Of a stretch of DNA of 64,000 nucleotides, positions 7,094-31,150 are shown in pieces (position 1 is the stretch's first letter; every line of letters starts with the position of its first letter). The notes beneath the pieces were generated by a model, which saw nothing but the letters and a program-made list of their open reading frames with translations, had not been told where the DNA came from and searched no databases. Made by a program: the position numbers and the translations under genes. Source of the stretch: Polyangiales bacterium (GTDB lineage Bacteria > Myxococcota_A > Polyangia > Polyangiales > Ga0077539); assembly GCA_044229975.1 (NCBI GenBank), contig JBGARZ010000001.1, forward strand, positions 544,001 through 608,000, written 5' to 3'.

Positions 7094-9646
7094 TCAGAAG
7101 CTGGGCGCGGCGCCGGTCGGGACGAGCTGCGCGGCCACGATGCCCTGCGCGTCGACGCCGTCGATGCGGAGCGAGAAGAGCGCTTCGAGGTGGACCCCGT
7201 CGCCCGCGGGGCGGGCCTCGGAGATGCCGACGACACGACACGTCCCGTCACCGAGGCGGGCGGTCTCGATGAGGAGCGGGCGCGACGCCGCGAGGCGGAC
7301 GAGCGCCTGCGGGTTGGTGATCCAGTCGGAGGACGCCCCCTCGCCCGCGACGCGGAGGAGACCCGCGTGGGCGCCCGGCGCGTCGACCGCGGCGAAGATG
7401 CCCTCGGCGCCCGTCACCAGGTGATGCAACACCGCGCGCGCCGTGGAGGGTGTGGTCTCGCCGAAGACGAGTCGGTGTGGCCGCATGCGGACGGCCGCGT
7501 CGACCGCCGCCGCGCTGTCGCCCTCGGCGTGCAGCACCGCGGCGTCGCGACGCACCCGCCCGAGCTCGTCACGGGCCTCGACGATGGCGATGCGATCGGT
7601 GCCCGGCAGGGCAGCGACCAGCGCCGCGAGCAGCGTGGTGCGACCGGAGCCGGCGCCGCCGACCACGAGAACGTTGCGCCGCGATTGGATCGCGTGGTGG
7701 ATGAGCGGCAGCGCGTTGGGGGACACCGTGCCGCGCGCCGCGAGGTCATTGAGCGTCGAGGCGCGCACGGGCGCACGCTCGACGGAGGCAACCGGACCGT
7801 TGATGGCGACCGGGGGAAAGACCGCCACGAGCCGCGCGCCGTCGCGCAGGGTGGTCTCGATGGCCGGGCGACCGCCGCGGTCGATGCCGTTCGCTCGTAG
7901 CAGCCGGTCGATGCCTTCGGCGGCGGCCGATGGCGAGGAGAAGCAGTAGCCCGACGGGCCGACGAGCCCGCTGCGCCCGACGGAGACGACGCCCGTCGAC
8001 TCGACGATGATCGTGGTGATCTCGCCGTCCTCGATGAGGGTGTCGAAGGGCCCGGCGCCGGCGATCTCGGCGAGCGCGTCGCGCGTGAGGCGCTCGGGGG
8101 TCACGCCGTTGGGGAGGTTGGGCAGGCTCCGGGCGGCCTGCTCGACGGTCGGACGCAACCGGGCGCGCGCGACCTCGTCGCCCACGGCGGACTCGGCCCC
8201 GCGACTGCGAGCGCCGCGCACGACCTGGGCGAGGAGTTCCTGGTACTCGTCGGGGGCGTGGGTCGAGGGGCGCACCGTCGATCGCGGCGCCGGGGCGGCC
8301 ATCATCGGTGACGGCGGGGTGCCGCCCGGAATGGAAGTCGGCTCGAGCGGGCGCGCCATCGCGACGGCGGCGGCCACGTCGGGCTGCCGCGTGGGCTCGT
8401 CGAGGTTGGGCGCCATCGGGATCACCTCACGCTGCTGAGGCATCTCCGCGGTGCTGGGCATGCTCATCGGGCTGAGCGGCGGTGCCGATGGACCACCCAT
8501 GGGCGGCATCGGTTGCGCGCTGAACTGCGGCGCCGGTCCGCCGAAGGAGGGCGCTGCTCCAAAGGAAGGCGGAGGGCCACCGAGCGAGGGAGGCATTCCA
8601 CCCATGGACGGCGGAGGACCACCCATCGGAGGACCGCCCAACGACGGCGGAGGGCCGCCCAACGAAGGCGGAGGGCCACCCAACGAAGGCGGAGGACCGC
8701 CCAACGAAGGCGGAGGACCGCCCAACGAAGGCGGAGGGCCACCCAACGAAGGCGGAGGGCCACCCAACGACGGCGGAGGACCGCCCAACGACGGCGGAGG
8801 GCCACCCATCGGAGGGCCACCCATCGGAGGACCACCCAACGAAGGCGGAGGACCGCCCATCGGAGCGCCGCCCAACGAGGGACCGCCCATTGGAGGACCG
8901 CCCATCGGCGAGCCCCCCAACGAGGGCGGTGGGCCACCATCGAGCGAACTGCGTCCTCCGATCGGAGGCATTCCGCCGCCCGTCGGGCCAGGCCGGAGCG
9001 GAGGAGGAGCGCCCATCCCCGGAGCGGACTGACCGCCCGGGCCCATCATCGTGCCGCGGATGGGAGCGCCGCCACCGAGCGGGGCCGTCGCGCGCGGCTC
9101 GGGAGGACCACCCATGCCCATGGGCGCCGGACCAGGCATCGAGCCCGGCGAAGAAGGCCGCCCCGGACCGAGCGGACTACCGCCACCCGGGCGACCACCA
9201 CCCAGGGGAGGCGGCCCGAAGCCGCCTGCGCGCGGAGGCTCTGGGGTCTCGGGCTGATCGTCGTAGCCCTCGTCGATTCCACCACCGGGCGGCGGGCCCG
9301 CGTCGACGTCGCCGCCCTCGTAGTTGTCGCCCGCGTCGTCCATGGCGCCGGCCATGTCGCCCATGTCGACGGTCACCACGAAGTCGCCGATATAGATCTT
9401 GTCGCCGGGGCGAATCACCGACGGCGTCGTGATGCGACGGCCGTTGAGATAGGTGCCATTGGTGCTCTTCAGGTCGGCGACGAAGAAGCGCCCCTCCCGG
9501 CGAAACACCTGCGAATGACGCTTGGAGACGTTGCCCTTCGGCAGCACGATGTCGTTTCCAGGGACGCGGCCCACGGTGACCTCGTCCTTGTCGAACTCCA
9601 TCCGCTTGGGCGTCCCCCCCTTCTCCGTCACGTTCAGCGTCAGCAT
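7094..9646 (-). CDS. FHA domain + Gly/Pro-rich linker + degenerate TadA/CpaF-family ATPase domain
   Basis: FHA motifs VGR, VSKRHS, DLKSTNGT; C-terminal CpaF-like GAGPFDTLIED, LRDGARLVAVFPPVA, NVLVVGGAGSGRTTLL, MRPHRLVFGE; ATG 9646 follows GAGGAG, and the longer track start overlaps truB. Confidence 0.85.
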   Translation of the reverse strand: MLTLNVTEKGGTPKRMEFDKDEVTVGRVPGNDIVLPKGNVSKRHSQVFRREGRFFVADLKSTNGTYLNGRRITTPSVIRPGDKIYIGDFVVTVDMGDMAGAMDDAGDNYEGGDVDAGPPPGGGIDEGYDDQPETPEPPRAGGFGPPPLGGGRPGGGSPLGPGRPSSPGSMPGPAPMGMGGPPEPRATAPLGGGAPIRGTMMGPGGQSAPGMGAPPPLRPGPTGGGMPPIGGRSSLDGGPPPSLGGSPMGGPPMGGPSLGGAPMGGPPPSLGGPPMGGPPMGGPPPSLGGPPPSLGGPPPSLGGPPPSLGGPPPSLGGPPPSLGGPPPSLGGPPPSLGGPPMGGPPPSMGGMPPSLGGPPPSFGAAPSFGGPAPQFSAQPMPPMGGPSAPPLSPMSMPSTAEMPQQREVIPMAPNLDEPTRQPDVAAAVAMARPLEPTSIPGGTPPSPMMAAPAPRSTVRPSTHAPDEYQELLAQVVRGARSRGAESAVGDEVARARLRPTVEQAARSLPNLPNGVTPERLTRDALAEIAGAGPFDTLIEDGEITTIIVESTGVVSVGRSGLVGPSGYCFSSPSAAAEGIDRLLRANGIDRGGRPAIETTLRDGARLVAVFPPVAINGPVASVERAPVRASTLNDLAARGTVSPNALPLIHHAIQSRRNVLVVGGAGSGRTTLLAALVAALPGTDRIAIVEARDELGRVRRDAAVLHAEGDSAAAVDAAVRMRPHRLVFGETTPSTARAVLHHLVTGAEGIFAAVDAPGAHAGLLRVAGEGASSDWITNPQALVRLAASRPLLIETARLGDGTCRVVGISEARPAGDGVHLEALFSLRIDGVDAQGIVAAQLVPTGAAPSF
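8560..8945 (-). repeat. in-frame tandem repeat (21-bp unit encoding GGPPPSL, plus GGPPM variants)
   Basis: Repeated cccaacga(a/c)ggcggagg(g/a)cc(a/g) units on the + strand. Confidence 0.9.
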
Positions 9647-9698
9647 CGCGGCAACTCGCTCCTCGCGGGCATCGTAACCGATTCCTCTCCGTGAATGC

Positions 9699-10631
9699 CT
9701 AGCAACTTGGCGACGCCGCCGAGATGCCTCGCAACACGCGAAGCACACCGTCGCTGCGACCGCCCACGCACACCGGCGCACCCGACGGATCAAACACCAG
9801 ACAAGTCCCCTCGCCCTCCGCCGCCACCGGCCGACCGAAGCGCAGCGCCCGCGCGACCTCCGCGTCGACCGTCACCGTCGACATCCAGCGCGACGCGCTC
9901 GACCAACCCTCCACCGCGGCGCGCACCCGATCACGCGTCTCCGCATCACCGCGCGCCGCCGCGAGCAGCTGCGCGCCGTCGAGCGCCCCGTCGAGCGTAA
10001 ACGCCCCAGACCGCGTACGTCGCAGCGCCGAGAGGTGCCCTCGCGTGCCGAGCGCGAGCGCAAGATCACGCGCGAGCGAGCGCACGTAGAAGCCCTTGCT
10101 CACCGCCACGCGCAGCGAGCACCACGGCGGGTCGAGCGACACCTCCAACAGTTCGGCCTCGCGCAGCGTCACTTCGCGCGCCTCGGGCACCACCACCTCG
10201 CCGCGACGCACCCGCGCGTGCATCGCCTCGCCGTCGACCTTGATGGCGCTCACCGCTGGCGGCACCTGGTGGATGGTTCCGCGCATGGCTTCGAGCGCTG
10301 CCGCGATGGCTTCGCGCGTGGGTGCCGCGGTGCCTTCCGGGGCGCGCTCGGTGACGACGCCGTCGGCGTCGAGGCTGTCGGTCTCGGCGCCAAAGGACAC
10401 CGTCGCGTCGTAGGCCTTGTCGTCGGCCGAGAGGTGCGACGAGAGCTTCGTCGCCTCGCCCAGCATCAACACCATCACCCCGGTGGCCATCGGGTCGAGC
10501 GTCCCCGCGTGGCCCACCTCGCGCTGACCCAGCACCCGACGCGCCGCCGCGACGAGGTCGTGCGACGTCGGGCCGCGGGGCTTGTCCACCCGCAGCACCC
10601 CGTCCACCGGCGCGCCTCGGGTGCGCCCCAA
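9699..10631 (-). CDS. truB: tRNA pseudouridine(55) synthase
   Basis: VDKPRGPTSHD, VGHAGTLDPMATG, QVPPAVSAIK, SKGFYVRSLARD, LRRTRSG. Confidence 0.96.
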   Translation of the reverse strand: MGRTRGAPVDGVLRVDKPRGPTSHDLVAAARRVLGQREVGHAGTLDPMATGVMVLMLGEATKLSSHLSADDKAYDATVSFGAETDSLDADGVVTERAPEGTAAPTREAIAAALEAMRGTIHQVPPAVSAIKVDGEAMHARVRRGEVVVPEAREVTLREAELLEVSLDPPWCSLRVAVSKGFYVRSLARDLALALGTRGHLSALRRTRSGAFTLDGALDGAQLLAAARGDAETRDRVRAAVEGWSSASRWMSTVTVDAEVARALRFGRPVAAEGEGTCLVFDPSGAPVCVGGRSDGVLRVLRGISAASPSC

Positions 10632-24677: not shown

Positions 24678-25694
24678 ATGCAACCATCCCTCACCGACCC
24701 GGCCACGCTCGTCCGACGCTGGCGCCTCCCCGCATCCTCGCTCCCCGACGTCACCGCGGCCTCGGAGCGCTTCGCCCTCAAGGTCACCGAGCACCTCGCC
24801 CGTCGACTCGAATCACTCGGGCCCGAGCACCCGCTGGTGCGTCAGTTTCTCCCGTCGGCCGATGAGCTCGTCGAGCGCGAGGGCTTCGTCAGCGACCCGG
24901 TGGGCGACGCCCATGTGCAGCGCTCCCCGGGGCTGCTCCAGAAGTACCAGGGCCGCGCCCTCGTCGTGGCGACCGCCGCGTGCCCCGTGCACTGCCGCTA
25001 CTGCTTCCGCCGCGAGTACCCCTACGCCGACGGCAGCGCGGTCAACCACTGGCCCGGCGTGCTCGCCACCCTGCGCGGCGACACCTCCATCACCGAGGTC
25101 ATCCTGAGCGGCGGCGACCCGCTGTCGCTGTCCAACACCGTCCTCGCCCGCATGGTGGGCGACCTCGAATCCATCCCGAGCGTCACCCGGCTGCGCATCC
25201 ACACGCGCTTCCCCACGACGGGCCCGGCGCGCGTCGACGATGAGCTCTTGCGGCTGTTGGGGGGTACTCGCTTCGCGCCCGTCGTGGTGGTGCTGCACGT
25301 CAACCACGCCGACGAGCTCGACGACGAGGTGCGCGCCGCCGTGCGCCGACTGCGATCGACGGGCGCGGTGCTGCTCTGCCAGTCGGTGCTGCTCCGCGGC
25401 GTCAACGACTCGGCCGAGGCGCTCGCGGCGCTCAGCGAGGCGCTCGGCTCGATGGGGGTGGTGCCGTACTACCTGCACCTGCTCGATCGGGTGCGCGGCG
25501 CGGGGCACTTCGAGGTTCCGGAGGCGGAGGCCGTGGCGTTGGTGCGGGCGCTCACCGATCGGCTGCCGGGGTACCTCGTGCCGAAGCTGGTGCGCGAGGT
25601 GGCGGGGGAGCGCGCGAAGTCGGGTGTGCCACTGCATGGCGCGGCGGACGGGGAAGAAGCCGCAAGGGCGCAAGGGTCGCAAGGCGAACGGTAG
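24678..25694 (+). CDS. epmB: radical SAM lysine 2,3-aminomutase, EpmB/YjeK type
   Basis: PGLLQKYQGRAL, CPVHCRYCFRR, EVILSGGDPL, LRIHTR, QSVLLRGVND, PYYLHLLD, LPGYLVPKLVRE; 338 aa. Confidence 0.85.
   Translation: MQPSLTDPATLVRRWRLPASSLPDVTAASERFALKVTEHLARRLESLGPEHPLVRQFLPSADELVEREGFVSDPVGDAHVQRSPGLLQKYQGRALVVATAACPVHCRYCFRREYPYADGSAVNHWPGVLATLRGDTSITEVILSGGDPLSLSNTVLARMVGDLESIPSVTRLRIHTRFPTTGPARVDDELLRLLGGTRFAPVVVVLHVNHADELDDEVRAAVRRLRSTGAVLLCQSVLLRGVNDSAEALAALSEALGSMGVVPYYLHLLDRVRGAGHFEVPEAEAVALVRALTDRLPGYLVPKLVREVAGERAKSGVPLHGAADGEEAARAQGSQGER
25661..25684 (+). repeat. dispersed 24-bp repeat, copy 1 (cgcaagggcgcaagggtcgcaagg)
   Basis: Identical to 58359-58382. Confidence 0.85.
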
Positions 25695-25709: not shown

Positions 25710-26051
25710 TTGGAAGCGGGAGAGTTCATCGCGGTCGACGTCGAGCCGGGTGCCGCCTCGGAGGAAGGCGTGTCCATGCGCTTCAAGCGGGCTGGCGAGT
25801 CGCGCCCGGTGGGCGCCATCACCTTCGAGTCCGAGGACGGCGTCGACGGGTGGTGGGCGGTGCGCGCGGTGTCGAGTGCCGATGGGGCCGAGACCGGGGA
25901 CGCCCGCGCGGTGCAGGTCGACGACTCCAGCGACGGGCTTTGCTGGCTCATCGTGGGAGGCGCCCACGGCCTCGTGCTCACCCACCGCGAGCGGGGCGTC
26001 GAGGAGCGGGCGCCCTACCTGCTGCTCTCGCTGCGTACGGCGATGGAGTAG
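25710..26051 (+). CDS. hypothetical acidic protein
   Basis: Fills the gap between epmB and the next gene, co-oriented; TTG start. Confidence 0.6.
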   Translation: MEAGEFIAVDVEPGAASEEGVSMRFKRAGESRPVGAITFESEDGVDGWWAVRAVSSADGAETGDARAVQVDDSSDGLCWLIVGGAHGLVLTHRERGVEERAPYLLLSLRTAME

Positions 26052-26103: not shown

Positions 26104-28227
26104 GTGGCTGGACGTGACGACGCGCGCGGCGAGGCGGTGGAAGCCTTCCTCTCGAAGACCCTCCTGCTGCGGGAGTGTGAGGCCGCGGTCATCGCCAAGG
26201 TCGCGCCGCACCTCGTGGTGAGCGAGCACCCGGCGGGCACCACGCTCGTGCGCGCAGGATCACCCTCCGACGGCATCTCGCTGCTGCGACGCGGGCGCGC
26301 GACGGCCTCGCTCGTCCACGCCATGACCGGCGCCAGCACCCCGTTGGAGACGCTCAACCCGGGCGATCACTTCGGCGACGTGGGCGCCCTCACCCGCGCG
26401 GCCCACGCCTACACCGTCGTCGCCGACGAGGGCTGCGTGGTCATGCGGATGAAGCCCGAGCTCGTCGAGGCGCTGCTCACGCGCGTTCCGCAGTTCTCCC
26501 TCGCGCTCGCGCGGCGGCTCGCCACCCGAACGGTGCAGCTCGGCGCCATCACCCTGCGTGCTTCGTCGGCCGCGACGCCCTCCGCGGTGCGCGCCCCGAC
26601 GCCCGCCCTCGGCGTCGATGCTCCGCGGCGCCCCGCCCCGGTGTCCGCCGTCGGGGCGAGCGCCGACGTCGGGTCGGGGGTGATTCCCTTCGTGGAGGTC
26701 AGCGACTTCGACCCGTCGCCCAAGGTCGTGGGGATGCTGCCCGCGAAGCTCATCCTCCAACACCGCGCCATGCCGCTGCGGCTCCAGGGCAACAAGCTCC
26801 TCGTGGGCATGGTGCTGCCCCGCAACGCCGCTGCGCTGGCCGACCTCCGGCGCGTGCTGCACACCGTCGACTTCGAGGTGGCGGCCGTCTCGCTCGAAGA
26901 CTTCGCCCACGCGGTGCTGCGCTACAAGGTCGACACCCCGCGCGGCCCCGAGAGCGCCCGCGACGCGCTGGTGGTGGTGTCGCCCGACTCGCTCTCCTTC
27001 GACGCGTCCGACAGCGAGCGCGAGCCCGACAAGGTCGCGCGCGTGGTGGGCGACGAGGTGGTGCGCGCCGTCAACCGCATCATCGCCGCGGGCCTCACCC
27101 GCGAGGCGTCGGACATCCACATCGAGCCCGAGGCGTCGGGCGTGAAGGTGCGCTTCCGCGTGCACGGGATGCTGCACGAGTGGTCGGAGGTCCCGCCGCC
27201 GTCGTTTGCGCGGGGCATCGCGGCGCGGCTCAAGGTGCTGTCCGGGCTCGACATCACCAACACGCGCACACCCCAGGACGGGCGCATCGGCCTCGCGTCC
27301 GGGGCGCGCGAGCTCGACCTGCGCATCTCGACCCTGCCCAGCAGCCGCGGCGAGAAGGTGGTGCTGCGGGTGTTCGAGGGCGCCGGGATGATGCGCCCGC
27401 TGGAGCAGATCTTCACCGACCCGGGCGCGCTCAACGCCGTGCGCAAGGCGCTGCAACGGCCGCACGGGGCCATCATCGTCGCGGGGGCCACCGGGTCGGG
27501 CAAGAGCTCGTCGCTCTACTCGATGCTCAACGAGCGACGCCGCACGCGCCCCGACACCAACGTGATGCTCATCGAAGACCCCATCGAGTACCGGCTCCAG
27601 GGGGTCACGCAGGTGCAGATCAACGCCAACGCGGGCCTCGGCTTCGCGCAGGTGCTGCGCGCGGCGCTGCGGCAGGACCCCGACGTCATCGCGGTGGGCG
27701 AGACGCGCGACGCGGACACGGCGCACATGGCGCTGGAGGCCGCGATGACGGGCCACCTGGTGCTGACGTCCACGCACGCCAACGACGTGACGTCGGTGCT
27801 GCAGCGCCTGGAGAGCCTCGGCTGCGGTCGAACGCTCGTCGCCGAGGCGCTCTCCTTCGTGCTGGTGCAGCGGCTCGCGCGGCGGCTGTGCAGCAACTGC
27901 GTGCGGCTCGATCAGGTGCCGCCCGCGCTGATGGAAAACCTCGTGGCGCGGCGGCTGGTCGACCGGGGGAGCCAGGTTCCGTTGCCGCGTCCGGTGGGGT
28001 GCGACCTGTGCCAGCAGACGGGCTATCAGGGGCGCATGCCGGTGGTGGAGTGGTGGCAGGTCAACGCCGACGCGAGGGACGCGCTCATCGCGGGCGCGGC
28101 GCCCACCGAGGTGTTGAAGGCGGCGGCCGAGGCGAAGGTGTTTCAGTCCTTCGGGAGCACGGCGGCGTACCTGATGGCGCGCAAGCTCCTGGGTACGAGC
28201 GAGGCGCTCATGGCGGTCGCAGGCTGA
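26104..28227 (+). CDS. cyclic-nucleotide-binding-fold domain fused to a PilB/GspE-family ATPase
   Basis: cNMP fold (PAGTTLVRAG..G..LNPGDHFGD); T2SSE N-domain (AMPLRLQGNKLLVGM); ASDIHIEP, PQDGR, GATGSGKS, IEDPIEY, RQDPDVIAVGETRD, TGHLVLTSTHAN, CxxC...CxxC. Confidence 0.9.
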   Translation: MAGRDDARGEAVEAFLSKTLLLRECEAAVIAKVAPHLVVSEHPAGTTLVRAGSPSDGISLLRRGRATASLVHAMTGASTPLETLNPGDHFGDVGALTRAAHAYTVVADEGCVVMRMKPELVEALLTRVPQFSLALARRLATRTVQLGAITLRASSAATPSAVRAPTPALGVDAPRRPAPVSAVGASADVGSGVIPFVEVSDFDPSPKVVGMLPAKLILQHRAMPLRLQGNKLLVGMVLPRNAAALADLRRVLHTVDFEVAAVSLEDFAHAVLRYKVDTPRGPESARDALVVVSPDSLSFDASDSEREPDKVARVVGDEVVRAVNRIIAAGLTREASDIHIEPEASGVKVRFRVHGMLHEWSEVPPPSFARGIAARLKVLSGLDITNTRTPQDGRIGLASGARELDLRISTLPSSRGEKVVLRVFEGAGMMRPLEQIFTDPGALNAVRKALQRPHGAIIVAGATGSGKSSSLYSMLNERRRTRPDTNVMLIEDPIEYRLQGVTQVQINANAGLGFAQVLRAALRQDPDVIAVGETRDADTAHMALEAAMTGHLVLTSTHANDVTSVLQRLESLGCGRTLVAEALSFVLVQRLARRLCSNCVRLDQVPPALMENLVARRLVDRGSQVPLPRPVGCDLCQQTGYQGRMPVVEWWQVNADARDALIAGAAPTEVLKAAAEAKVFQSFGSTAAYLMARKLLGTSEALMAVAG

Positions 28228-28234
28228 GGGGCCA

Positions 28235-31150
28235 ATGGACAATCCGATCGTCGTAGCGGTGCTGCTCGCGGTGGTGGTGGGCCTCGTCGTGGTGCTGCAA
28301 CGGCAGCGCGCGGCGAAGGCGAAGTCGGCGCGGGGCGAGGTCGACGGGATGGCCGCGCTGCTCGACAAGGGGCAGTACGCCGAGGCGGCGCAGCTCGCGA
28401 TCCGCAACGACCGCTTCGCCGAGGCGGTCGACCTGTACCTCCGCGCCAACGACCCGGCCCGCGCGGCGCAGGTCGCGTCGCGCATGGGCAACCTGCGGCA
28501 GGCGGGCGAGCTCTACGAGCGGGCGGGCGACAGCGAGCGCGCGGCGCTGAGCTACGACAAGGCGGGCATGGCCGACCGGGCCAGGGCGCTGCGCGGCGCC
28601 ACCGCGGCGACGACGACGACCGAGGGCGACGCGAAGGCGCGGGCGCGCGACGCAGAGGGCCGCTACCACGCGCTGCGGGCGAAGGCGGCGGGCGACCCGA
28701 CGCGGACCTTCGAGGTGCAGCAGGCGGCGCAGGGCGCGGCCGAAGAGCTGTTGGCCGTCGGTGAAGTGACGCGCGCGGCGGAGCTGTACCGCGAGGCCGA
28801 CATGATCGACGAGGCGGTGCACCTCTACGTCAACGTGCTCGGAACGCCCGGCGCAGCGGCTCCGCTGGTGGCGGCGCGCGGGTTTCATGAGCGCGCGGCC
28901 GAGCTCTACGAGCTGGCCGGGCAGGGCGAGCGGGCGGCGGTCATCTGGGCCGACGCCGCGCGCAAGAGCCCCGACTCGGACAAGCTGCTCGATCGGGTCG
29001 AGGCGCTCTCGCTCGCGGTGGCCAACACGCTGCTGCGGGAGCTCATCGCGACGCGGCCGCTCAGCAAGACGACGGCGCCGCTGCACTACCGCTACGGCAC
29101 CGTGCTGGAGAAGGCCGGCGAGGTGGACCGGGCCATCGAGGTGTTCATGGCGCTCCAGGGGAGCGTGGCCGGGTACCGCGACGTGGAGAAGCGGGTGCGT
29201 CGGCTGGCGCGCGGCGAGGGTGTCTCCATGAAGGCGCCGGGGGTGCCGAGAGACCTGGTGTCGACCGGCAAGCACAACTTCGCGGTGCCCCAGAACACGG
29301 AGGGAGGCATCGGGCGCGAGGACGCGTCGCGGATGGTGCGCGAGGCGACGAAGGCCGCCGCCGCGAGGGCGAGGCGAGCGAGCAGCCTGCCGCCGCCCGC
29401 GGAGCCCAGGAGCCCGCCGCAGCAGGTGGTGCACATCACGCAGGTGGTGATCCAGGGGAGGCCCGGGCACCCCGATCGACCGCTCGCGCGGGGTCTGGAG
29501 GACAGCCCCATCGGGCTCGGCGCGCTCTACGACGACGCGGTGCGCGCGGCGAAGGAGGGGCCGTCCATCGAGTCGCTCCAGGGAATGGTCGGCGACCGGC
29601 CGTGCGACCTCGGCAACATCGAGGTGTTCTATCGACTGGGTCTGGCGGCGCTGGCGTCGGGCGACTGGTCGCGGGCGCAGTCGTGCTTCGCCGCGGTGGA
29701 GGAGGCGTCGCCGGGGTACCGCGACGCGGGCGCGCGGGTGTTGGAGCTCGCGGGCTGGCAGTCGATGCTGGCGCGCAAGATGTCGGTGGTGGGCGCGCGG
29801 AAGAACGAGGCGCTCGACGCGGCGACGAGCCGCTACGAGGTGAAGGGCGAGCTCGGTCGCGGCGGCATGGCGGTGGTGTACCGCGCGACGGACACGGTGC
29901 TCGGGCGCGAGGTGGCGCTGAAGTTCTTGTCGGAGGAGCTGAGCGCGCAGGGCGAGATGCGCGAGATGTTTCAGCGCGAGGCGCGCTCGGTGGCGCAGCT
30001 CAACCACCCCAACATCGTGACCATCCACGACAGCGGCGTGATCGAGGGGCGGATGTTCATGGCGATGGAGCTCGTCGAGGGGCGCACCGTCGACGCGGTC
30101 ATCGAGGCGGAGGGGAAGATCGCCGTCCTGGAGGCGCTGCGCGTCACGAAGCAGGTGCTGGAGGCGCTGGAGTTCGCGCACGAGCGGCAGTTCATCCACC
30201 GCGACATCAAGCCGTCCAACATGATGCGGAGCTCGGCGGGGACGGTGAAGCTCATGGACTTCGGGCTCGCGAAGTCCGTCACCCAGGGCAACAAGAGCTC
30301 GATGATCGCGGGGACGCCCGCGTACATGCCGCCCGAGCAGTTCATCGGCGTGGGCGTCGACCTGCGCAGCGACCTCTTCGCGGTGGGCGCGACGCTCTAC
30401 GAGATGCTCACCGGCGTCCTCCCCTTCGAGGGCATGGACCGCAAGAAGCGCCCGCGGCCGCCGCGCGAGATCACGCCGGGCGTGCCCGAGATGATCGACA
30501 AGATGATCTTGCAGGCGCTCGACTTCGACCCCGACAAGCGCTTCCAGAGCGCGGCGGAGTTCCTGGTTCCCATCAAGCGGGTGATCTTCGCGGTGGACAA
30601 GGCCACGCGCGGCAGCCCGATGCCCGAGCCCAGCTCTCCGCCGGAGACCCTCTCGGCAGCCCTCGCGGCGGTGCTCTCGGAGACCTCCGTGCGCCCGCTG
30701 GCGGAGACGCGCGTCGACGTCCCGAAGAAGTCAGCGCCCTCCACCGAAGAGACCGTCGCGGTCATTGAGACGAAGGCCGACCCGATCGCGGACCCGATCG
30801 CCGACGCGGCCGCCGTCGCCTCCGCGGAGACCCTGCTGGGCATCCCCGTCGAAGCACCTGCGCCGCCTGTCGACACCGTCGTCGAAGCGCCGACCGAGTC
30901 TGCGGCGCCCGTCGTCGAGGCGCCGACCGAGACCATCGTCGAAGCGGCGCCTCCCGTGCAGTCGCTCGTCAGCACTCCGGCGGCGGCCGATGGTTTCATC
31001 GAGTTCGGCGCGCCCCTCACGCCTCCGCCCGCGGCCGCTCCCGACGCACCCGCCGCGCTGAAGGAGACCGTCGCGTACGACCCCTTCGAGGGCATCGACG
31101 AGGCCGACCGGATGCCGCCGACGGTTCCGCCGAAGACGCCGGAGGCGTGA
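28235..31150 (+). CDS. membrane-anchored Ser/Thr kinase with TPR-like helical repeats
   Basis: N-terminal TM; repeated AAELY/AGELY helices; LGRGGMAVVY, VALK, HRDIKPSN, DFG, YMPPE; acidic Pro-rich tail; starts 7 bp after the ATPase gene. Confidence 0.92.
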   Translation: MDNPIVVAVLLAVVVGLVVVLQRQRAAKAKSARGEVDGMAALLDKGQYAEAAQLAIRNDRFAEAVDLYLRANDPARAAQVASRMGNLRQAGELYERAGDSERAALSYDKAGMADRARALRGATAATTTTEGDAKARARDAEGRYHALRAKAAGDPTRTFEVQQAAQGAAEELLAVGEVTRAAELYREADMIDEAVHLYVNVLGTPGAAAPLVAARGFHERAAELYELAGQGERAAVIWADAARKSPDSDKLLDRVEALSLAVANTLLRELIATRPLSKTTAPLHYRYGTVLEKAGEVDRAIEVFMALQGSVAGYRDVEKRVRRLARGEGVSMKAPGVPRDLVSTGKHNFAVPQNTEGGIGREDASRMVREATKAAAARARRASSLPPPAEPRSPPQQVVHITQVVIQGRPGHPDRPLARGLEDSPIGLGALYDDAVRAAKEGPSIESLQGMVGDRPCDLGNIEVFYRLGLAALASGDWSRAQSCFAAVEEASPGYRDAGARVLELAGWQSMLARKMSVVGARKNEALDAATSRYEVKGELGRGGMAVVYRATDTVLGREVALKFLSEELSAQGEMREMFQREARSVAQLNHPNIVTIHDSGVIEGRMFMAMELVEGRTVDAVIEAEGKIAVLEALRVTKQVLEALEFAHERQFIHRDIKPSNMMRSSAGTVKLMDFGLAKSVTQGNKSSMIAGTPAYMPPEQFIGVGVDLRSDLFAVGATLYEMLTGVLPFEGMDRKKRPRPPREITPGVPEMIDKMILQALDFDPDKRFQSAAEFLVPIKRVIFAVDKATRGSPMPEPSSPPETLSAALAAVLSETSVRPLAETRVDVPKKSAPSTEETVAVIETKADPIADPIADAAAVASAETLLGIPVEAPAPPVDTVVEAPTESAAPVVEAPTETIVEAAPPVQSLVSTPAAADGFIEFGAPLTPPPAAAPDAPAALKETVAYDPFEGIDEADRMPPTVPPKTPEA

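Follow-up and report, generated by a model that had tools for sequence, protein, structure and literature searches.

Among the closest described systems, control of the motor ATPase PilB is direct through cyclic di-GMP (c-di-GMP) and protein cofactors, and cyclic AMP (cAMP) acts through Vfr transcription, according to the available part of a 2024 review (PMC11656802) in which neither 'TPR' nor 'orphan' occurs. Wang et al. 2016 (PMC5013675), in the part available, list GAF and REC fusions and, as an architecture without a reference, the protein DP2226, and give neither a form with an N-terminal cyclic nucleotide monophosphate (cNMP) domain nor a kinase partner; the accessible text of a survey of myxobacterial type IV pili (PMC6060248) contains no occurrence of 'cNMP'. 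Here we analyse a window of 64,000 nucleotides from a Polyangiales bacterium (contig JBGARZ010000001.1, positions 544,001 to 608,000) in which the gene for a PilB/GspE-type ATPase with an N-terminal cNMP fold is followed by the gene for a membrane-anchored Ser/Thr kinase with tetratricopeptide repeats (TPRs). The ATPase represents a variant of the PilB/GspE motor that is real, conserved and, it appears, not yet described; the two genes very likely form a functional pair. Neither an N-terminal cNMP–PilB protein nor a solenoid kinase of this kind was found described in the literature searched, whose coverage excluded subscription papers. The ATPase gene and its features, in window coordinates, are as follows.

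26104-28227 (+): gene for the cNMP-fold/MshEN_C/PilB–GspE-type ATPase (P0001), 707 aa, three Pfam domains
26131-26568 (+): cyclic-nucleotide-binding fold with a long C-helix, residues 10-155; PF00027, VIA and Foldseek matches, predicted local distance difference (pLDDT) of the model mostly >90
26326-26331 (+): T75-G76 hairpin, a candidate phosphosite
26362-26424 (+): phosphate-binding cassette, degenerate, with G91 and D92 retained but H101 where the arginine would be
26566-26676 (+): disordered Pro/Ala-rich linker, residues 155-191, pLDDT <50
26680-26928 (+): MshEN_C/T2SSE_N1 subdomain (N1D); PF05157
27058-28128 (+): T2SSE ATPase core, N2 domain (N2D) plus C-terminal domain (CTD); PF00437, 340.9 bits; top Foldseek matches GspE 4pht, PilB 5tsh and PilF 5oiu
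27202-27204 (+): Ser367 in N2D
27484-27507 (+): Walker A GATGSGKS, intact, final residue Ser468
27574-27588 (+): Asp box EDPIE; E491, D492 and E495 in 121/121 homologues
27670-27717 (+): Walker B RQDPDVIAVGE with catalytic E533, then pore-loop-1 acids D536/D538; aligned to E395, D398 and E400 of Geobacter metallireducens PilB
27751-27777 (+): His box GHLVLTSTH; H551 and H558 in 120/121 homologues
27889-28011 (+): tetracysteine zinc motif CxxC..CxxC (596/599/633/636); C596 and C599 in 120/121, C633 and C636 in 121/121 homologues

All catalytic motifs are intact and nearly invariant among the 121 homologues. Residues named for G. metallireducens PilB in the available part of PMC5424180 were located by alignment to 5TSG: the arginine fingers R407 and R422 and the Asp-box Glu are invariant (121/121), the catalytic Glu is kept in 119/121 and the pore acids persist at the positions of PilB D398 and E400 (D536 in 120/121, D/E538 in 110/121). 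The ATPase carries every feature of the PilB/GspE clade that we considered, namely Walker A, an atypical Walker B, Asp and His boxes, arginine fingers, tetracysteine and an N1D ahead of N2D. Three Pfam models match it above their cut-offs: cNMP_binding (PF00027) at residues 42-126 (45.1 bits against a cut-off of 27.5), MshEN (PF05157) at 194-275 and T2SSE (PF00437) at 319-675. The trio recurs in 117 of the 120 best homologues listed, the named ones being metagenome-assembled genomes labelled Polyangiales, Kofleriaceae, Myxococcales, Myxococcota or Deltaproteobacteria; a cluster look-up of ten distant homologues turned up no cultured organism.

The N-terminal region departs from the described motors. 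An AlphaFold model of residues 10-312 superposes on the cyclic-nucleotide-binding (CNB) domain of protein kinase A (PKA) with a VIA Z score of 18.6 and a root-mean-square deviation (r.m.s.d.) of 1.9 Å over 138 aligned residues, and its top Foldseek matches are GlxR, CRP and the PKA regulatory subunit (PKA-R). A search of the ATPase for the RLGxxL motif of MshEN_N found none, and the sole match to the MshE structure 5htl is its chain B at residues 63-145 (Z 13.8, r.m.s.d. 1.3 Å). Since PF05157 and this match place the C-terminal MshEN subdomain in the protein, the c-di-GMP-binding half alone has been replaced and the docking half persists; in PilB/GspE, docking on PilM/GspL is attributed to N1D (PMC11656802, available part). 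The first-pass annotation of this stretch had read five intact catalytic and zinc motifs, a cNMP fold in place of an RLG-type MshEN, a non-canonical cassette and a 971-aa kinase gene with a membrane anchor and TPRs 7 bp downstream, and each of these readings holds; the retained half of MshEN went unmentioned there.

The cassette reads FGDVGALTRAAHAYT, with H101 aligned to the arginine that binds the cyclic phosphate. An arginine at positions 100-102 occurs in 0/121 homologues and 0/50 loci, and the position is variable (Q in 54, S in 36, H in 27; also N and P). In CNB domains generally, loss of this arginine makes cAMP or cGMP binding unlikely and leaves room for another ligand. Because the arginine is absent in 121/121 homologues, gating of the ATPase by cAMP is unlikely, and its cNMP fold probably binds no cNMP. 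The first-pass annotation had proposed control by a different ligand together with the kinase. A reading close to that proposal, in which the fold still senses a ligand of a non-canonical kind (a nucleoside, c-di-GMP or some metabolite) and so gates the motor, with the kinase as a second input or acting downstream, could draw on the retention of G91 and of D/E92, each in 118/121 homologues, and of the whole cNMP domain in lineages that have no kinase. Other CRP folds do take other ligands: Clp binds c-di-GMP, and the fold matches include structures of cAMP-independent trypanosome PKA-R, one with inosine, as far as the excerpts available for each go. Against a live sensor, the arginine position and its neighbours vary and no new invariant pocket residue has appeared, which suggests relaxed constraint, and the locus survey found no recurring cluster of cyclase or phosphodiesterase genes. 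A nucleoside pocket of the trypanosome type was considered and not adopted, as position 94 holds no acidic residue (G in 71, A in 28, S in 17). We regard a live sensor as unlikely; to judge from the alignment, a docking domain free of ligand explains the missing arginine and the variable site no worse than a domain with a different ligand.

The partner gene lies immediately downstream of the ATPase gene on the same strand.

28228-28234 (+): 7-bp gap, with GAGGGG overlapping the ATPase stop codon, read from the sequence
28235-31150 (+): gene for a transmembrane/alpha-solenoid/TPR/Hanks Ser-Thr kinase (P0002), 971 aa, single copy in the genome
28247-28297 (+): single N-terminal membrane anchor, residues 5-21, with basic residues after it; predicted topology N-out/C-in, lacking a periplasmic sensor
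28415-29218 (+): SNAP/TPR-like solenoid with AAELYExAG repeats
29477-29770 (+): second conserved TPR block; TPR_2 at residues 463-494, and alignment
29834-30595 (+): kinase domain with intact Gly loop, VAxK, alphaC Glu, HRD, DFG and GTP..PE; PF00069, 168.6 bits
30617-31147 (+): variable acidic, low-complexity Pro/Ala tail, read from the sequence, not conserved

The placement of GAGGGG at the stop codon makes translational coupling of the two genes likely; a scan for promoters and terminators gave nothing above chance. Among 27 aligned kinases, K563, E582, D657, N662, the DFG motif and E701 are invariant, and one sequence has HCD instead of HRD. A single N-terminal hydrophobic peak is present in 27/27, with positive charge behind it in 26/27. 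The kinase had no match to PASTA or another extracytoplasmic sensor, and its PknB/Stk1 score is 294 against a cut-off of 450.

At E<=1e-125 the order has the ATPase in 18 of 151 sampled genomes and the class in 38 of 401; for another class the figure is 14 of 251, and the genomes in these samples are incomplete. Each of the 49 further class members found was traced to its locus, and the kinase lies directly downstream of the ATPase in 31 of them, spread over eight families; among the 31 are two kinases truncated at contig ends, two that are interrupted and one case in which the ATPase is frameshifted. Of 30 relatives listed, 29 have the two genes separated by -1 to 50 bp. Basal branches of the arginine-less ATPase clade carry the kinase, and all 13 relatives within the source family, f1, that have the ATPase in the 151-genome sample also hold the kinase. 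In one genome (G773) the contig ends at the ATPase locus and a kinase fragment lies elsewhere. A metagenome scan placed 6 of 15 loci in the ATPase family, all close relatives; a scan of genome contigs with the full alignment, run on generic PilB patterns, returned mostly unrelated PilB/GspE proteins, and in only 4 of 80 loci did the match extend into the cNMP region from close to its start. The remaining neighbours of the pair are not conserved beyond the genus or subfamily.

A second cNMP–MshEN_C–T2SSE protein is encoded in the same genome (C26:121822-123801, equivalent to L081:8823-10802; such handles for contigs and loci are our own), and its cassette, FGE..KQPRSAT, is canonical. Relatives of this paralogue occur in 12 of 401 class genomes, and on its sequence it is the best candidate for a PilB-type motor gated directly by cAMP or cGMP. 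We built a quick maximum-likelihood tree from 96 ATPase cores, with SH-like approximate likelihood-ratio (SH-aLRT) support, no bootstrap and FastTree used additionally; in it the 49 arginine-less ATPases form one clade (SH-aLRT 100), sister to 13 sequences of the paralogue's type; the 62 together have support of 96. Eleven of the 13 sister-clade ATPases retain the cassette arginine. In 8 of the 13 sister loci, one of them cut by a contig end, the ATPase adjoins a TPR/SNAP-like protein of 460-500 aa with a C-terminal cNMP domain, in whose own cassette Thr or Ala takes the place of the arginine (7/7 without Arg). These partners are found at the following loci.

L174:6693-8138: TPR/SNAP-solenoid plus cNMP partner
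L177:6640-8052: the same
L179:10215-11591: the same
L180:2929-4368: the same
L181:3875-5302: the same
L182:10024-11409: the same
L184:244-1743: the same

The partner's solenoid and the N-terminal solenoid of the kinase align with an HHalign probability of 99.0 (E 2.4e-18, 205 columns). Because the solenoids of the kinase and the TPR–cNMP partner are homologous, the conserved unit is an ATPase with a solenoid partner, and, as far as sequence comparison goes, the output domain of that partner is different according to the state of the ATPase cassette. On the same footing, the pairing and an evolutionary swap appear well supported. For the paralogue itself, a solenoid partner was looked for in the source genome and none was found. 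One sister-clade ATPase (L175:6213-8915), 900 aa long, is extended at its C terminus by some 250 residues that have no Pfam match. An acidobacterial cNMP–MshEN–T2SSE ATPase with a canonical cassette (L042:7893-10031) falls outside both Myxococcota clades in the quick tree, and an Atlas cluster of cNMP plus MshEN, which is a lead only, is commonest in Candidatus Hydrogenedentota (score 0.89). The fusion of a cNMP domain to the ATPase may have arisen more than once.

Two residues of the ATPase follow the presence of the kinase. Position 468, the last residue of Walker A, is Ser in 31/31 kinase-linked and Thr in 17/17 kinase-less ATPases, and position 367 is Ser in 31/31 and 4/17, respectively. 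Among the 121 sites that are invariant in kinase-linked ATPases, these two alone differ in each of the three kinase-less lineages. Three independent losses of the kinase were each accompanied by a change of Ser468 to Thr and by relaxation at Ser367. Both serines are kept at two loci (L109 and L150) whose genomes encode the kinase elsewhere. With the expectation of Thr468 set beforehand, we read 13 new loci; 0/13 had the kinase, 12/13 had Thr and 1/13 had Ser, in an altered Walker A. All 13 fall in one lineage with L001, so that the independent losses stay at three. A rough proxy, equal length of the longest contig of an ATPase homologue and of a kinase homologue, agrees: it gave Ser468 in 20/20 matching homologues and a match for 0/19 Thr468 proteins on contigs of at least 7 kb, a proxy that depends on phylogeny and draws partly on the same genomes as the locus comparison. 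A third candidate site lies in the cNMP fold, where S/T75 and G76 are each present in 31/31 kinase-linked ATPases and the hairpin is gapped in 10/17 kinase-less ones. The serine signal is suggestive of co-evolution with the kinase and is not a proof of phosphorylation.

The same observations could in principle come from two genes that are merely co-expressed, the kinase having other substrates and the serine pattern being drift to the family consensus. Each gene is indeed found without the other, the pattern rests on three independent events and Thr is the family consensus at 468. Drift and co-expression would not account so easily for tight coupling across eight families while the remaining neighbours change, for a homologous solenoid partner in the sister clade, or for the fact that 2 of 121 invariant sites follow kinase loss and both are serines; we rate this explanation as quite unlikely. 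The pairing that the first-pass annotation expected is conserved, and of its proposal of joint control by a different ligand and a kinase, the kinase part gains from the pairing and from the signal that tracks the kinase, whereas the ligand part is weakened by the missing arginine and the variable site.

The machine on which such a motor could work is not encoded beside it. No pilC/gspF homologue lies near the ATPase in any of 77 loci covering both clades, and the source genome has seven PilB/GspE-type ATPases to two PilC/GspF genes and one TadB/TadC-like pair, which bears out the orphan status noted in the first pass. With no platform gene in 77 loci and seven ATPases to two platforms, any motor role must be in trans; each of five further carriers examined encodes two or more PilC/GspF-type genes. 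We looked for a link to a specific machine through the neighbours and rejected it, the candidates being pilT at L121, a pilB cluster at L112, minor pilins at L174 and gspC/D at L169 and L181. The individual arrangements are a module next to pilT (L121:13234-14868), one near a pilB–pilT–pilC cluster (L112:13699-19501), one in line with three minor pilin genes (L174:4047-6522) and one near gspC–gspD (L169:930-4776). Three further platform-less PilB/GspE-type ATPases with extra N-terminal domains, encoded at C17:143256-145994, C17:148551-150878 and C11:334370-336517, form one clade; one of these domains looks GAF-like by eye.

We propose that the intact ATPase likely serves as an accessory motor, in trans, on a type IV pilus or type II secretion platform that the cell already has, and that the membrane-anchored kinase likely recruits it through the helical-repeat solenoid, to which the ATPase would bind. 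The ATPase would form a hexamer, with N1D docked on PilM/GspL and the acidic pore on PilC/GspF, and the kinase would switch it, in one direction or the other, by phosphorylation at T75, S367 or S468. An ancestral cAMP-gated module would, in this scheme, have exchanged its input for a kinase. Work on a type IVa pilus (T4aP) or type II secretion platform seems fairly probable, and we lean slightly towards phosphorylation of the ATPase by the kinase. The complete scheme, an in-trans accessory motor recruited and phosphorylated by its own kinase with a cNMP fold that is probably ligand-free, is held tentatively, at a shade below even confidence. More speculative is a broader picture of a Myxococcota family of plug-in motors with solenoid adaptors, in which the sister form would be gated by cAMP or cGMP and paired with a pseudo-cNMP adaptor, and the kinase form would be ligand-free and phosphorylated, possibly at the Walker A serine. 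A complex prediction of ATPase residues 10-706 with kinase residues 33-328 scored 0.11 against a mark of 0.32; controls were not folded, and the score is not used for or against binding.

Several observations weigh against this proposal. Pairing is not obligate: at E<=1e-8 the kinase was found nowhere in 16 of 49 ATPase-bearing relatives, and it is present in 0/14 loci of the other class (one is cut by a contig end, and only one of the genomes was searched whole). In G029 the ATPase and kinase lie apart, the kinase on another contig; in G039, of the same genus and gene order, the ATPase has been cleanly lost between epmB and the kinase (L122:7833-11675); and G014 holds just a related kinase. 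No sensor domain that would account for its input is evident in the kinase. Three losses give a sign-test p of 0.25, which leaves 0.05 out of reach (trait columns dropped). L195 has S468 without a kinase, L177, a sister-clade sequence without the kinase, has both serines, and Thermus thermophilus PilF natively has GKS, so that Ser468 is not special in itself; by the same token, Ser at 468 is compatible with activity. The retention of G91 and D/E92 could be explained by a ligand. Pilus or secretion genes lie near the module in only 5 of 77 loci and belong to different systems, which by a rough estimate is not clearly above chance. The arginine-less clade is not placed with canonical PilB or GspE in the quick tree, whose deep branches are tentative, and the ATPase scores below the equivalog cut-offs for both PilB (TIGR02538, 390.3 against 675.65) and GspE (TIGR02533, 370.5 against 630.25).

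Several of these points would suit an ATPase that is a regulator rather than a productive motor: either a decoy, competing with PilB/GspE hexamers or mixing into them, or a stand-alone ATP-driven switch within a kinase signalling complex that has no role in filaments. Such a regulator would need no platform gene beside it (0/77) and could fall below both family cut-offs; its C-terminal tail has diverged, ERR at 386-388 is replaced by NTR within the source genus (11/121 sequences), and its sole constant partner is a signalling scaffold. The catalytic, zinc and pore residues and N1D are, however, conserved beyond the needs of a decoy. Orphan PilT paralogues act in trans in Myxococcus xanthus motility (PMC13584747, available part), and T4aP genes are dispersed in these suborders (PMC6060248, available part). 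We consider a purely regulatory role improbable and retain the accessory motor.

Other genes around the pair were weighed separately. EpmB, a HEAT protein, an ABC exporter and a globin were rejected as parts of the module, as they flank the pair only within the genus. The EpmB gene (24678-25694, +), for elongation factor P (EF-P) beta-lysylation, passes the TIGR03821 cut-off and is ordinary; a 113-aa open reading frame directly upstream of the ATPase (25710-26051, +) has no Pfam or NCBIfam match and recurs only in L102. Four of five kinase-less genomes in genus g15 encode a small DUF6812 protein directly upstream of the ATPase (L114:10557-11057; also L115, L116 and L166), a possible replacement partner; a similar-looking 153-aa gene without a Pfam match precedes the sister-clade ATPase at L176. 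Genus g7 has a second, N-terminally truncated solenoid kinase (L127:7763-9757, L128:321-2321) beside two genes that by eye are cNMP-domain-like. Farther away in the window lies one more gene for an ATPase-like protein.

7094-9793 (-): FHA domain/long Gly-Pro linker/TadA-like ATPase, Walker A GSGRTT (Lys to Arg)

This protein, 87-90% identical across most of the genus, is a conserved pseudo-ATPase. The suggestion that it reads the module did not stand: it follows family f1, occurring in 19 of 20 members (9 of them without the module ATPase), and at E<=1e-45 it was found in 0/18 genomes outside f1, including all eight that have the pair.

The family offers two candidate routes of control: one motor keeps an intact cAMP/cGMP pocket, and the other is tied to a Ser/Thr kinase of its own, for which three residues are candidates. 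If the broader picture of plug-in motors is true, it would amount to a direct example of second-messenger control being exchanged for kinase control in a motor. Myxobacteria have hundreds of Ser/Thr kinases and few known substrates, so a kinase encoded with its candidate substrate is directly testable in vitro. The module also bears on why these genomes hold far more extension ATPases than platforms.

Compared with known systems, the kinase differs from the PknB/Stk1 receptor kinases, which place extracytoplasmic PASTA domains behind a central transmembrane segment; it has a single N-terminal anchor and no PASTA. With CRP/GlxR and PKA-R the ATPase shares the fold, the long C-helix and the cassette G-[ED], but the cyclic-phosphate arginine is missing in its whole clade. 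MrpC of M. xanthus is a cNMP-fold protein without a known ligand, but a transcription factor and not a motor; as a precedent for a kinase acting on such a fold, Pkn14 phosphorylates its cNMP domain at S55/T56 in vitro, where the function of the sites is not demonstrated (10.1101/737593, available part). Vibrio cholerae MshE (5HTL) has the C-terminal MshEN subdomain in common with the ATPase, which has no c-di-GMP-binding RLG-motif subdomain. Desulfotalea psychrophila DP2226 (MshEN–T2SSE–cNMPbind) shares the joining of cNMP and T2SSE domains, but it retains MshEN and has its cNMP domain at the C terminus (PMC5013675, Supplementary Table 4, available part). GspE (Vibrio vulnificus 4PHT, V. cholerae EpsE 1P9W), the top Foldseek match, shares the core and the N1 domain; the ATPase differs in its TIGR02533 score below cut-off and in lying outside the gsp operon, a canonical gspC-D-E-F-G locus being present elsewhere in the genome. 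PilB (G. metallireducens 5TSH/5TSG, M. xanthus 3JC8, T. thermophilus PilF 5OIU) has in common N1D–N2D–CTD, Walker A and B, Asp and His boxes, arginine fingers, tetracysteine and pore acids, whereas the ATPase has a cNMP fold in place of MshEN_N, falls short of TIGR02538 and stands apart from pilT–pilC, the canonical pilB–pilT–pilC locus being separate in the genome.

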